From the NCBI RefSeq assembly GCF_003334255.1, contig NZ_QOWU01000029.1: a stretch of 59,744 bases of DNA; one strand, 5' to 3'. The stretch is from Escherichia coli (GTDB taxonomy: Bacteria; Pseudomonadota; Gammaproteobacteria; Enterobacterales; Enterobacteriaceae). Below the pieces are notes generated by a model. It ran no database searches. It was not told the DNA's origin and saw only the letters and a list, made by a program, of their open reading frames with translations. Both the position numbers and the translations under genes were made by a program. Positions within the stretch are counted from its first letter, which is position 1. The number at the start of each line of letters is the position of its first letter. Shown one piece after another: positions 3,811-15,587 of this stretch.

Positions 3811-4311
3811 TCAGTCGGCAAAATTTCGCCAAATCTCCTGGATATCTTCCATCAGATAGCCACGATAGAGCAGAAAACGCTGGATCTTAACTTTTTCTGA
3901 AAAGACAGTTGGCAAAGGTTCGCCATATTTTCGCGTCGCCTGATCGCGCGCCAGTGCGCACCAGTCGATGTCACATTCACGCATCGCTTTTTCTGTCGCT
4001 TCGCGGGAAATACCTTTCTGATTCAGTTCCTGGCGAATACGCGCAGGTCCATAACCTTTGCGGCTACGGCTGGCGATAAAGCGCGCAACAAATCGGCTGT
4101 CATCGAGATAGCCATGTTCATGGCACCAGGCAATAACGCGCTCGTAATCTTCTGCCGTAGCATCAATCTCTTCTGGGCCATTTTTGCCCATAATCGGTGC
4201 CGCGAGTTTACGTCGCAGTTCTTGCTCACTGTGATCGCGCACCGCCAGAATGCGTACCGCACGATCCAACAGGCGAGCATATGCCGGGCGACGGGATGTT
4301 GATTCTGTCAT
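3811..4311 (-). CDS. recX: RecA regulator RecX, 166 aa
   Basis: ORF track; immediately downstream of recA on the same strand; sequence recognised as RecX. Confidence 0.93.
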
Positions 4312-4327
4312 GGCATATCCTTACAAC

Positions 4328-4362
4328 TTAAAAAAGCAAAAGGGCCGCAGATGCGACCCTTG
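4328..4362 (-). terminator. Putative intrinsic terminator between recA and recX
   Basis: Minus strand reads an imperfect GC-rich hairpin (gggtcgcatctgcggccc) followed by a T-rich run (ttttgctttttt) just after the recA stop. Confidence 0.5.
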
Positions 4363-4379
4363 TGTATCAAACAAGACGA

Positions 4380-5518
<1,139 letters not shown>

Positions 5519-10188: not shown

Positions 10189-10232
10189 TCAACAGCGGAG
10201 ATCCATTAAGGATCTCCGTGAGACTATAGAAT

Positions 10233-10257
10233 GCCTGATGCGCTACGCTCATCAGGC
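10233..10257. repeat. REP-like palindromic element in the srlD-gutM spacer, adjacent to a second hairpin at about 10196-10218
   Basis: gcctgatgcgctacgctcatcaggc resembles REP half-sites; preceded by the perfect hairpin cggagatccattaaggatctccg. Confidence 0.5.
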
Positions 10258-10292
10258 ATACAGGACTTCCGCCACTACATTAAGGAAAAGTT

Positions 10293-10718: not shown

Positions 10719-11492
10719 ATGAAACCTCGTCAGCGTCAGGCCGCCATTCTGGAGTATCTGCAAAAGCAGGGTAAATGCTCGGTTGAAGAATTGGCGCAAT
10801 ACTTTGACACCACAGGCACAACCATTCGCAAAGATCTGGTCATTCTGGAACATGCCGGAACCGTCATTCGTACTTATGGCGGAGTGGTGTTGAATAAAGA
10901 GGAATCCGATCCGCCTATCGATCATAAAACACTCATCAACACCCACAAGAAAGAGCTGATTGCAGAAGCTGCCGTTAGTTTTATCCATGATGGCGATTCG
11001 ATCATTCTTGATGCTGGCAGTACCGTTTTGCAGATGGTTCCCCTGCTCTCGCGCTTTAATAACATCACGGTGATGACCAACAGCCTGCATATCGTCAATG
11101 CGCTATCCGAACTGGATAACGAACAAACTATCCTGATGCCAGGCGGAACGTTTCGCAAAAAATCGGCCTCATTTCACGGGCAACTGGCAGAGAATGCCTT
11201 CGAGCATTTCACCTTCGATAAATTGTTTATGGGCACCGACGGCATCGATCTCAATGCGGGCGTAACCACCTTTAACGAGGTTTATACCGTCAGTAAGGCA
11301 ATGTGCAATGCCGCGCGCGAAGTGATTTTGATGGCGGACTCATCAAAGTTTGGCCGTAAAAGCCCCAACGTAGTTTGCAGTCTTGAAAGCGTCGATAAGC
11401 TGATTACCGACGCAGGTATCGATCCGGCGTTTCGTCAGGCGCTGGAAGAGAAAGGGATCGATGTGATCATAACCGGAGAGAGCAATGAGTGA
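10719..11492 (+). CDS. srlR: DeoR-family glucitol operon repressor, 257 aa
   Basis: ORF track; N-terminal helix-turn-helix and DeoR C-terminal sugar-binding domain. Confidence 0.93.
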
Positions 11493-12450
11493 AGCACTAC
11501 TGAACGCGGGACGTCAGACGTTAATGCTGGAGTTGCAGGAAGCAAGCCGTTTACCGGAACGTCTGGGCGATGATTTTGTTCGCGCCGCCAATATCATCCT
11601 GCACTGTGAAGGCAAAGTGGTGGTTTCGGGAATTGGCAAATCGGGCCACATTGGTAAGAAAATCGCCGCAACGCTTGCCAGTACCGGCACTCCGGCTTTT
11701 TTTGTCCATCCGGCAGAAGCGCTGCACGGCGATCTGGGGATGATCGAAAGCCGCGATGTGATGCTGTTTATCTCTTACTCCGGTGGCGCGAAGGAACTGG
11801 ATCTGATTATTCCGCGTCTGGAAGATAAATCTATCGCGCTGCTGGCGATGACCGGCAAACCGACGTCACCGCTGGGCCTGGCGGCAAAAGCGGTGCTGGA
11901 TATCTCCGTAGAACGCGAAGCCTGCCCGATGCACCTTGCGCCGACCTCCAGCACCGTCAATACCCTGATGATGGGTGACGCGCTGGCGATGGCGGTCATG
12001 CAGGCGCGCGGATTTAATGAAGAAGATTTTGCCCGCTCCCACCCAGCCGGGGCACTGGGCGCTCGCTTGCTGAATAAAGTGCATCATCTGATGCGCCGTG
12101 ACGATGCCATCCCACAGGTGGCGTTAACCGCCAGCGTGATGGATGCGATGCTGGAACTCAGCCGCACCGGTCTGGGGCTGGTGGCGGTATGTGACGCTCA
12201 ACAACAGGTACAAGGCGTCTTTACCGACGGCGATTTACGTCGCTGGCTGGTTGGCGGCGGCGCACTCACCACGCCAGTCAATGAAGCGATGACGGTCGGC
12301 GGCACCACGTTGCAATCGCAAAGTCGCGCCATCGACGCCAAAGAGATCCTGATGAAGCGCAAAATCACTGCCGCACCGGTGGTGGATGAAAACGGCAAAC
12401 TCACCGGCGCAATAAACCTGCAGGATTTCTATCAGGCCGGGATTATTTAA
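11485..12450 (+). CDS. gutQ: D-arabinose 5-phosphate isomerase GutQ (SIS and CBS domains), 321 aa
   Basis: ORF track; SIS-domain motif and tandem CBS domains; start overlaps the srlR stop. Confidence 0.93.
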
Positions 12451-13961
12451 TCCTTCAATCCCAGACGTTTCGCCAGCCGATGCAGGTTGGCGACGTCGGT
12501 TTCCAGCATCCGCGCGCAGGCAGCCCAGTTGTGATGATTTTGTGCCAGTGCCTGACGAATAGTTTCACGCTGGAACGCTTCTGTCGCTTCACGCAGGTTT
12601 TGCTTAACAACGGGCACCGCCGCCACTTCTGGCGTCGGCAACGTCACCTCAGGAAAAGCAAAATGTTGCGCCTCAAGAATCACTTCATCGCCGCTGCGGG
12701 TGGCTCTCGCCAGAACTACCGCCCGATGAATAGCATGTTCCAGTTCGCGCACGTTTCCCGGAAAACTGTAGTGTTGCAGTAAATTTCGCGCTCCGGCACT
12801 TAATACCACGCGGGAGAGCCCCTGCCGCAAACGACACTGCTCGCAGAAATACCCCGCCAGCAGAATGACATCATCGCCCCGCTCACGCAGCGGCGGCACC
12901 GAAAGTGGAAACACGCTCAGGCGATGAAACAAATCGGCGCGGAATCGCCCTGCCAGCACCTCTTCGCGTAAATCGCGGTTAGTCGCCGCCAGCACGCGCA
13001 CATCGACCCGCAAACAACGGTCATCGCCAACGCGCTGAATATCGCCATACTGCAACACCCTCAGCAGCTTGGCCTGCAATGCCAACGACAACTCGCCGAT
13101 CTCATCCAGAAACAGCGTGCCGTTATCCGCCATTTCAAACTTCCCGCTGCGATTACTGATAGCGCCAGTAAACGCTCCTTTCACATGCCCGAACAACTCA
13201 CTTTCCGCCACACTTTCCGGCAGTGCAGCACAGTTGAGATAGACCAGCGGATTCACCGCCCGTGGCGAGGCTTCATGAATCGCTTTCGCCACCAGCTCCT
13301 TACCGGTTCCAGTCTCACCGCTGATCAGGACGTTGAGATCGGACGCCGCCACAATCTCAATCTCTTTTTTCAGTTGCGTCATGCCAGGGGACAAGCCAAT
13401 CATCTGCGTCTGTTTCACCGCTTCAAACGGCGTGGCATCGCCTGGCAGCATATTCTGGCTTTCCAGTTGTTCAATCAGCAACGCATTGCTTAACGCTCCC
13501 GCCGCCAGCGCAGCAATCAGCCGTAGCTCTTCGTCGCTGAAAACATCGAACTGATCGGGCTGCATCCCGTCGAGCGTCAGTGCGCCGATCAGGTTTTGCC
13601 CGGCAAACAATGGCAGACCAACGCAGGCGTGAACCTTCAGACTCTCCTGCCCAGGAATCAAACCGTCATAGGGATCGGGCAATTCGCTGTCTGCGGGAAA
13701 GCGCACCACATCCCCGGCGCGGGCAATCGCTTCCAGCCGTGGATGCCCTTCCAGCGCAAAGCGTCTACCGAGTACATCCTTTGCCAGACCGTCGATGGCA
13801 AGCGGAATAAACTGCCGCGAATCGTAACGTAGCAACGCAGACGCATCGCACTCCAGCACCTGACGTAGCGTGGTGATCAGGCGCTGAAAACGATCCTGGT
13901 GACCAATCCCACGCTGCAATTCGATGGCGATATTCGCCAGCACATCAACGGAAAAACTCAT
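12447..13961 (-). CDS. norR: Sigma54-dependent NO-responsive regulator NorR, about 504 aa; the track ORF is extended to 14036
   Basis: ORF track; GAF domain, AAA+ sigma54-activator core ([14 protein letters not shown]) and C-terminal HTH. Confidence 0.95.
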
Positions 13962-13973
13962 CTTTGCCTCACT

Positions 13974-14029
13974 GTCAATTTGACTATAGATATTGTCATA
14001 TCGACCATTTGATTGATAGTCATTTTGAC
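13974..14029. promoter_or_regulatory. Three NorR enhancer sites (GT-N7-AC) in the norR-norV intergenic region
   Basis: gtcaatttgac (13974-13984), gtcatatcgac (13995-14005) and gtcattttgac (14019-14029) seen directly. Confidence 0.75.
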
Positions 14030-14084
14030 TACTCATTAATGGGCATAATTTTATTTATAGAGTAAAAACAATCAGATAAAAAAC

Positions 14085-14100
14085 TGGCACGCAATCTGCA
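14085..14100 (+). promoter_or_regulatory. Sigma54 (-24/-12) promoter for norVW
   Basis: TGGCACgcaatcTGCA about 50 bp upstream of the norV start codon. Confidence 0.85.
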
Positions 14101-14147
14101 ATTAGCAAGACATCTTTTTAGAACACGCTGAATAAATTGAGGTTGCT

Positions 14148-15587
14148 ATGTCTATTGTGGTGAAAAATAACATTCATTGGGTTGGTCAACGTGACTGGGA
14201 AGTGCGTGATTTTCACGGCACGGAATATAAAACGCTGCGCGGCAGCAGCTACAATAGCTACCTCATCCGCGAAGAAAAAAACGTGCTGATCGACACCGTC
14301 GACCATAAATTCAGCCGCGAATTTGTGCAGAACCTGCGTAATGAAATCGATCTGGCGGATATCGATTACATCGTGATTAACCATGCAGAAGAGGACCACG
14401 CTGGGGCGCTGACCGAACTGATGGCACAAATTCCCGATACGCCGATCTACTGTACTGCCAACGCTATCGACTCGATAAATGGTCATCACCATCATCCGGA
14501 GTGGAATTTTAATGTGGTGAAAACTGGCGACACGCTGGATATCGGCAACGGCAAACAGCTCATTTTTGTCGAAACACCAATGCTGCACTGGCCGGACAGC
14601 ATGATGACTTACCTGACAGGCGACGCGGTGCTGTTCAGTAACGATGCTTTCGGTCAGCACTACTGTGACGAGCATCTGTTCAACGATGAAGTGGATCAGA
14701 CGGAGCTTTTCGAGCAGTGCCAGCGTTACTACGCCAATATCCTGACGCCGTTCAGCCGCCTGGTAACGCCGAAAATTACCGAGATCCTGGGCTTTAACTT
14801 ACCAGTCGATATGATAGCGACCTCCCACGGCGTGGTCTGGCGCGATAACCCGACGCAAATTGTCGAGCTGTACCTGAAATGGGCGGCTGATTATCAGGAA
14901 GACAGAATCACCATTTTCTACGACACCATGTCGAATAACACCCGCATGATGGCTGACGCTATCGCCCAGGGGATTGCGGAAACCGACCCACGCGTGGCGG
15001 TGAAAATTTTCAACGTCGCCCGAAGCGATAAAAACGAAATCCTGACCAATGTCTTCCGCTCAAAAGGCGTGCTGGTCGGCACTTCGACGATGAATAACGT
15101 GATGATGCCGAAAATCGCCGGGCTGGTGGAGGAGATGACTGGTTTACGCTTCCGTAACAAACGCGCCAGTGCTTTCGGCTCTCACGGCTGGAGCGGCGGT
15201 GCGGTGGATCGTCTTTCCACGCGCCTGCAGGATGCGGGTTTCGAAATGTCGCTCAGCCTGAAAGCCAAATGGCGACCAGACCAGGACGCTCTGGAGTTAT
15301 GCCGTGAACACGGTCGCGAAATCGCCCGTCAGTGGGCGCTCGCGCCGCTGCCGCAGAGCACGGTGAATACGGTAGTTAAAGAAGAAACCTCTGCCGCCAC
15401 GACGGCTGACCTCGGCCCACGGATGCAGTGCAGCGTCTGCCGGTGGATTTACGATCCGGCAAAAGGCGAGCCAATGCAGGACGTTGCACCAGGAACGCCG
15501 TGGAGTGAAGTCCCGGATAACTTCCTGTGCCCGGAATGCTCCCTCGGCAAAGACGTCTTTGACGAACTGGCATCGGAGGCAAAATGA
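14148..15587 (+). CDS. norV: Anaerobic nitric oxide reductase flavorubredoxin, 479 aa
   Basis: ORF track; metallo-beta-lactamase-like, flavodoxin and C-terminal rubredoxin (CxxC...CxxC) domains. Confidence 0.96.

Follow-up and report, generated by a model that had tools for sequence, protein, structure and literature searches.

The gutQ and norR genes of Escherichia coli converge with no DNA left between them, which raises the question of how either transcript is brought to an end, and of whether expression of the sorbitol operon is thereby tied to that of norR. We examined this junction in a stretch of E. coli DNA of 59,744 nucleotides (hereafter the window, to which coordinates refer unless another genome or locus is named). 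gutQ, the last gene of srlAEBD-gutM-srlR-gutQ, occupies 11485..12450 on the + strand and encodes a D-arabinose 5-phosphate isomerase of 321 aa, as read from the ORF and its translation and from RefSeq; its TAA stop is at 12448-12450. norR lies on the - strand at 12447..13961 and codes for a protein annotated at 504 aa, the sigma-54 activator of norVW; positions 12447-12449 (TTA on the + strand) supply its stop, read as TAA in reverse complement. At the junction the + strand reads GGG ATT ATT TAA, and the two coding sequences share the palindromic tetramer TTAA (T12447, T12448, A12449, A12450), a tail-to-tail overlap that contains both stops, one on each strand. A preliminary description spoke of stop codons overlapping by 4 nt; this holds for the coding sequences (12447-12450), while the stops themselves have just 2 nt in common (12448-12449), and the wording was in that respect slightly loose.

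The overlap is not an artefact of annotation. The two genes, norR with 504 aa, are annotated with these 4 nt in common in a RefSeq record that is 100% identical, and likewise in MG1655 (gutQ 2829813..2830778; norR complement 2830775..2832289), to which the window aligns without gaps at 99.7% identity, an MG1655 coordinate being the window coordinate + 2818328. The 2.8-kb stretch that holds the locus was found in 5426/5426 complete E. coli genomes, and both ORFs are genuine: the C-termini of GutQ and NorR are conserved to the last residues (57-79 orthologues), and the two genes are annotated in all 5426 of the 5426 genomes. At its other end, the norR frame stays open upstream of the annotated 504-aa start at 13961, through 13962-14036 (-) to an ATG at 14036, and the resulting 529-aa form is the one used by one database record. 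Other overlaps occur nearby: srlR (10719..11492) and gutQ (11485..) share 8 nt on the same strand (11485-11492, +), which suggests translational coupling, and srlA/srlE and norV/norW overlap by 4 nt each in annotated records.

An overlap of this kind is common. Four bp is the most frequent overlap length in prokaryotes, and the distribution of convergent overlaps jumps at 4 because CTAA, TTAA, CTAG and TTAG each contain two opposed stops (Lillo & Krakauer 2007, PMC2174442). The same study counted 58 convergent overlaps in E. coli and a predicted intrinsic terminator in 23 of the 116 genes involved (~20%). With its two genes on opposite strands, a 3' overlap of exactly 4 nt and a TTAA tetramer holding both stops, gutQ-norR is a textbook member of the NTAR class of 4-nt convergent overlaps described there, with no difference in kind.

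To place the junction in the family, a scan of species-representative genomes yielded 80 GutQ loci, from Escherichia, Citrobacter, Salmonella, Enterobacter, Lelliottia, Leclercia, Kosakonia, Klebsiella, Raoultella, Kluyvera, Pseudocitrobacter, Phytobacter and other genera, 75 of which could be scored at the junction. The junction was exactly -4 in 58/75 loci, and all four tetramers (TTAA, CTAA, TTAG and CTAG) were found. Two loci (L009 and L047, both from long-read NCTC assemblies) are -4 in the DNA with an interrupted norR frame, for which sequencing error is a possible cause. The junction is -38 in 11 loci from Klebsiella, Raoultella and one Enterobacter isolate (e.g. L051, L056, L070), where NorR is longer by 11-12 residues, and -8 in two Enterobacter loci (L032, L039). 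One locus (L041) carries an insertion of ~970 bp, one (L050) a triplicated norR 3' end, and in four norR is absent from the available stretch, L079 among them, a locus too short to show norR. That the overlap is -38 in Klebsiella and Raoultella and -8 in two Enterobacter loci indicates that the junction tolerates change. Where it is -4, the first base of the tetramer serves at once as wobble base of the last gutQ codon and as third base of the norR stop, and the fourth as third base of the gutQ stop and as wobble base of the last norR codon; because of these double codon roles, bases 1 and 4 can drift freely among the four tetramers without altering the geometry. For that geometry to be conserved it is thus enough that both C-termini are conserved and that indels are absent, and no selection for coupling is needed.

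The preliminary description also held that transcription from each side must read into the other gene, and published data support an overlap of the transcripts. gutQ-norR is among 165 convergent excludons detected in half or more of 58 RNA-seq sets from MG1655 (Sanmartin et al. 2025, PMC12288877 Table 1), by an ExcludonFinder criterion that is almost automatically satisfied by any expressed pair with overlapping coding sequences. A Rho termination region on the + strand, labelled "antisense norR", was reported at MG1655 2831288 (Adams et al. 2021, PMC7815308 Supp. file 2), which by coordinate mapping is position 12960 of the window, 510 nt beyond the gutQ stop. Counted over 800 nt on each side of it, the upstream/downstream reads change from 87/25 in untreated cells to 130/197 under bicyclomycin, and the Rho score is 5.27 (p=2.2e-12; PMC7815308). 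This point lies within a C-rich, G-poor untranslated RNA antisense to norR at 12551..13230 (+), whose C/G ratio is 1.05-1.7, for the most part 1.1-1.7, to 12978 and 1.4-2.55 beyond 12926. A second published Rho region is located upstream of gutQ, inside srlR, at 11018 on the + strand (MG1655 2829346; reads upstream/downstream 697/76 untreated and 386/156 with bicyclomycin; Rho score 3.7; PMC7815308 Supp. file 2), and therefore part of the transcription is lost before gutQ in LB, which implies polarity within the srl operon. In the Term-seq tables of Adams et al., which cover LB and M63-glucose with the operon uninduced, no steady-state 3' end is entered at 2830500-2831099; expression in these media is low, with only 87 reads in the 800-nt interval, and the + strand reads antisense to norR could come in part from an unmapped internal promoter and not from gutQ read-through. 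The overlap of the two genes and of their transcription is already annotated and catalogued.

It had been claimed that the overlap leaves no room for terminators. It is true that there is no intergenic DNA and no canonical intrinsic terminator on either side: a consensus scan of the + strand after gutQ returned none, and on the - strand after the norR stop the scan, combined with folding, gave weak sites only (-3 to -6 kcal/mol), unconserved. The claim is misleading, however, as regards signals embedded in norR, since a conserved hairpin begins within norR, 11 nt past the stop of gutQ, and the read-through is ended by Rho. On the gutQ side, a weak terminator-like site downstream of the norR stop (12393..12421, -) consists of weak stems (-6.1 and -3.1 kcal/mol) with CGUUUUCAUC after them; its folds differ between genera, gutQ codons 296-311 are without synonymous constraint (P=0.07), and the site is probably not functional. 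No conserved element for norR termination was found on the gutQ side. Further upstream in gutQ, codons 285-293 (AKEILMKRK, 12337-12363) form the stretch of lowest synonymous diversity in the gene, 0.19 where the gene averages 0.41 (P=0.003, from just 6 informative codons and uncorrected for multiple windows), and on the - strand they correspond to a U-rich stretch ~85-110 nt beyond the norR stop. A search of Rfam gave no family matching 11400-14200 at E<=1.

The hairpin, at 12461..12499 (+) inside norR codons 488-500, has 15 bp and a folding energy of -23.1 kcal/mol; transcribed beyond gutQ, its RNA folds as CC.GACG..UCGCCAGCC-GAUGCA-GGUUGGCGA-CGUC-GG. Across 61 distinct sequences its core, TCGCCAGCC-N6-GGTTGGCGA-CGTC, is nearly invariant, with flanking codons free to vary, and 92.5% of the cells in the hairpin are paired. 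When 57 full-length norR orthologues were aligned by codon and scanned for synonymous diversity, codons 489-497 proved to be the lowest 9-codon interval of the 504-codon gene (0.128 vs a gene mean of 0.425), and the nine lowest intervals all lie within codons 484-500. When the interval was compared with amino-acid-matched resampling, the observed value was 1.149 against an expected 3.865 ± 0.52, and 0 of 100000 draws were as low. The pattern of diversity mirrors the fold: stem codons are near-frozen (0-0.2, with the rare Arg codon CGG kept in 51/57 sequences), while unpaired codons are normal (0.41 for His494 in the loop and 0.50 for the bulged Lys498). Synonymous recodings of the same peptide, made with orthologue codon usage, fold at -11.3 ± 3.1 kcal/mol versus -23.5 observed (P=0.0016), and this control, together with the resampling, rules out codon bias and protein conservation as causes of the constraint. 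An antisense ORF of 100 aa (12480-12782, +), which opens at an ATG in the hairpin loop, was also considered as the cause and rejected, since R-T-G merely complements the His codon CAY, and the constraint spans ~13-20 codons, not 100.

Covariation within the stem is sparse (3 pairs, few sequences): one pair is C-G in 58 sequences, U-A in 2 and U.G in 1, and a second is C-G in 57, U-A in 1 and unpaired in 3. Compensatory C-G to U-A changes are thus seen at two pairs, one with a U.G intermediate. In 57/61 sequences the stem has a central G.U pair, to which an A.C mismatch corresponds in the - strand fold; the + strand fold is the more stable in 60/61 (means -23.0 vs -19.1 kcal/mol). The synonymous conservation is the main support for the hairpin, and by itself it names neither strand nor function. 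A synonymously constrained hairpin embedded in norR appears to be undescribed in the literature searched, and makes a modest, though well-supported, addition.

The loci with a modified junction bear on the same point. The hairpin is kept in all -38 and -8 loci and, of the 5 loci examined in which norR has been lost or displaced, 4 keep some form of the stem next to gutQ. In L007, 8/9 core pairs remain; in L038 and in the gutQ-proximal copy of L050 the G.U pair has become G-C, a change that is impossible while the site encodes Asn and is seen once the coding constraint is lifted; L072 has just a small rearranged stem left. In L041 the insertion breaks the stem but brings in, a few bases beyond it, a canonical terminator, GGCGTTC-TACTGT-GAACGCT followed by TTTTTCTT. 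Two outgroup norR genes that do not adjoin gutQ (L083 and L085; 63% and 53% identity) encode the same NLxRLAKRL residues with other codons and do not form this hairpin, one of them retaining ~6 bp of the stem; this comparison consists of two sequences only, taken from the representative-genome search, and the protein homologue search gave only close NorR relatives.

Some of these loci have a structure of their own. In L041, the Enterobacteriaceae MAG UBA7338, the ~970-bp insertion (3966-4940 of that locus) sits exactly at the gutQ/norR junction and encodes an antitoxin of the PrlF family (NF007429, E=1.8e-37), next to which is a 158-aa ORF without an NCBIfam match, possibly a candidate partner toxin; ~35 nt of the norR 3' end are duplicated and left beside gutQ, with the canonical terminator next. 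In L050 (Kosakonia quasisacchari), the last ~40 nt of norR, hairpin included, stand in three tandem copies between gutQ and norR (3966-4210 of that locus), the gutQ-adjacent copy having the perfected stem and the NorR-coding copy a C.A mismatch. L007 and L038 lack norR, yet a 45-65 nt remnant of its 3' end remains attached to gutQ with the hairpin; in L007 norVW is absent too, and next come REP elements and an ~800-aa ORF taken to be hypF.

What such a hairpin may do is suggested by a known class of transcript ends. In the class outlined by Dar & Sorek (2018, PMC6061677), transcripts that depend on Rho have their ends exactly behind stable stem-loops with no U-tract, rut sites lie a short way downstream, and such 3' stems protect against PNPase and RNase II. 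The end of gutQ shares some features with this class: a stable stem-loop soon after the stop (-23.1 kcal/mol, 11 nt away), no U-rich sequence after it, and then C-rich, G-poor RNA with bicyclomycin-sensitive termination at +510 (the published Rho score of 5.27). It differs from the class as outlined there in that the stem-loop is encoded in the coding sequence of a convergent gene, and is thus dual-coding, with a measurable footprint at synonymous sites. By analogy, the hairpin is probably a protective 3' stem-loop of the gutQ/srl mRNA, and we put it forward as a candidate for this role. Ribosomes would be released at the gutQ stop TAA and RNA polymerase would then transcribe the stable hairpin at 12461-12499; Rho would load on the C-rich untranslated antisense RNA and terminate transcription by about +510, some 0.5 kb into norR antisense; and 3'-5' exonucleases would trim the RNA back to the hairpin, which would form the protected 3' terminus of the gutQ/srl mRNA. 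Only ~50 nt of antisense overlap with the norR mRNA would then be long-lived. In the opposite direction, norR transcripts would run some way into gutQ antisense and be ended likewise by Rho or decay. Elsewhere in the operon, the srlD-gutM spacer (10195-10260, +) contains two strong hairpins without U-tracts, CGGAGAUCC...GGAUCUCCG and the REP-like GCCUGAUGCG...CUCAUCAGGC, the 121-nt fold of the spacer reaching -44.4 kcal/mol (z=-4.9); their probable role is to stabilise the 3' end of the srlAEBD transcript.

Joining this explanation by hairpin and Rho to the survey of the junction, we consider it fairly probable that gutQ-norR is an ordinary, ancient 4-nt tail-to-tail overlap of unrelated genes and not a dedicated regulatory device.

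The hairpin might instead be a weak intrinsic terminator, at which a fraction of the polymerases would stop without Rho at ~12500-12505, leaving the remainder to Rho. Its GC-rich 15-bp stem is indeed followed by UUUCC in Escherichia, Salmonella and many Citrobacter, and TransTermHP-predicted terminators overlap the partner gene in 146/165 excludon pairs, a figure that is not gene-resolved (PMC12288877). What the reading would require besides the GC-rich stem is a U-tract, and this is absent: the E. coli tail, UUUCCAGC, has a U-tail score of 2.47, and the 61 sequences average 1.97 (range 1.03-2.83), against 4.2-5.4 for canonical terminators. Nor is the tail conserved: many genera have CAUCUCC or UGUCUCC in its place, after a stem that does not vary; the site was not called by a simple terminator scan, and no Term-seq peak is reported there in LB or M63-glucose. 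We therefore regard this role as unlikely. SEnd-seq, in work from 2019 attributed to Ju et al., is said to have revealed bidirectional intrinsic terminators between convergent genes, and the likeness to them is that a single hairpin stands between two converging genes. The gutQ-norR hairpin differs in that it has no flanking A-tract or U-tract (its upstream flank is UCCUUCAAUCCCAGACG and its downstream flank GGUUUCCAGC) and lies inside one of the two coding sequences, so norR could not be terminated there without being truncated. The spacers of the outgroup loci L083 and L085 each hold a hairpin flanked by A and T runs, and these are candidates, on their sequence, for the bidirectional type.

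Returning to the overlap itself, which we take to be an ordinary one, the preliminary description had raised the possibility that it couples the sorbitol operon to norR. In such a coupling, polymerases and antisense RNA from the sorbitol-induced srl operon would lower norR mRNA or protein, and possibly the reverse, whether polymerases collide, transcription is interfered with or RNase III cuts the duplex; if true, it would link sugar-alcohol catabolism to the nitric oxide response. The pair is itself on the published list of overlapping transcription units, recurring in at least half of the 58 RNA-seq sets (PMC12288877), the Rho region at 12960 implies at least 500 nt of read-through antisense to norR, the arrangement is conserved across the family, and in Salmonella srlR and gutQ are ~2-fold up after an NO donor, an observation that does not bear on the mechanism (PMC4960098). 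The regulatory meaning of convergent excludons, however, rests on mutually exclusive expression and RNase III processing, whereas gutQ-norR is known by the coverage criterion; in the searchable literature we found no report of reciprocal or mutually exclusive expression of gutQ and norR, and no evidence for or against control of norR by sorbitol. The conservation of the geometry is explained by the conserved protein C-termini and free wobble drift, and the arrangement is one of dozens of similar pairs. Because Rho acts both in srlR and after gutQ, the junction bears a 3' hairpin, the functions of the two genes are unrelated, and the junction has been altered or lost in some lineages (-38 or -8 overlaps, insertions, norR loss), any coupling is likely to be incidental. 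The two Rho regions and the hairpin point to a limiting of antisense transcription rather than to its exploitation; a regulatory coupling seems to us quite improbable, and whatever sorbitol induction does to norR is expected to be slight and a by-product.

A stronger version would make the junction a selected dual-coding device, in which the hairpin in the last 13 codons of norR sets both the 3' end and the stability of the srl/gutQ mRNA and meters the antisense transcription that passes into norR, sorbitol thereby tuning NorR. If true, sorbitol or gut sugar-alcohol would tune NorR abundance, and with it the threshold of the nitric oxide response, across Enterobacteriaceae; we give this version only a slim chance.

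Least probable of all, and in our view very much so, is that the palindrome serves the norR mRNA on the - strand, in its translation or decay, or acts in the DNA as a protein-binding inverted repeat or a cruciform: the inverted repeat does fold on both strands, at a mean of -19.1 kcal/mol on the - strand, and synonymous constraint alone leaves the strand unspecified, but the G.U pair is an A.C mismatch there, the + strand is nearly always the more stable, the stem persists and even improves next to gutQ in L038 and L050, where norR does not cover it, a 3' end at a stem upstream of the norR stop would give a non-stop mRNA, and the compensatory changes favour pairing over base-specific protein contacts.

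As a structure, then, the hairpin offers a clean example of an RNA structure that imposes synonymous constraint on a convergent gene: its signal is the strongest of its kind in norR, and several lineages have kept it after losing norR. Should it prove to be the protected 3' end of an operon terminated by Rho, it would show by what means genes without intergenic DNA obtain their 3'-end signals, and it would stand as a caution that "no spacer" does not equal "no terminator".
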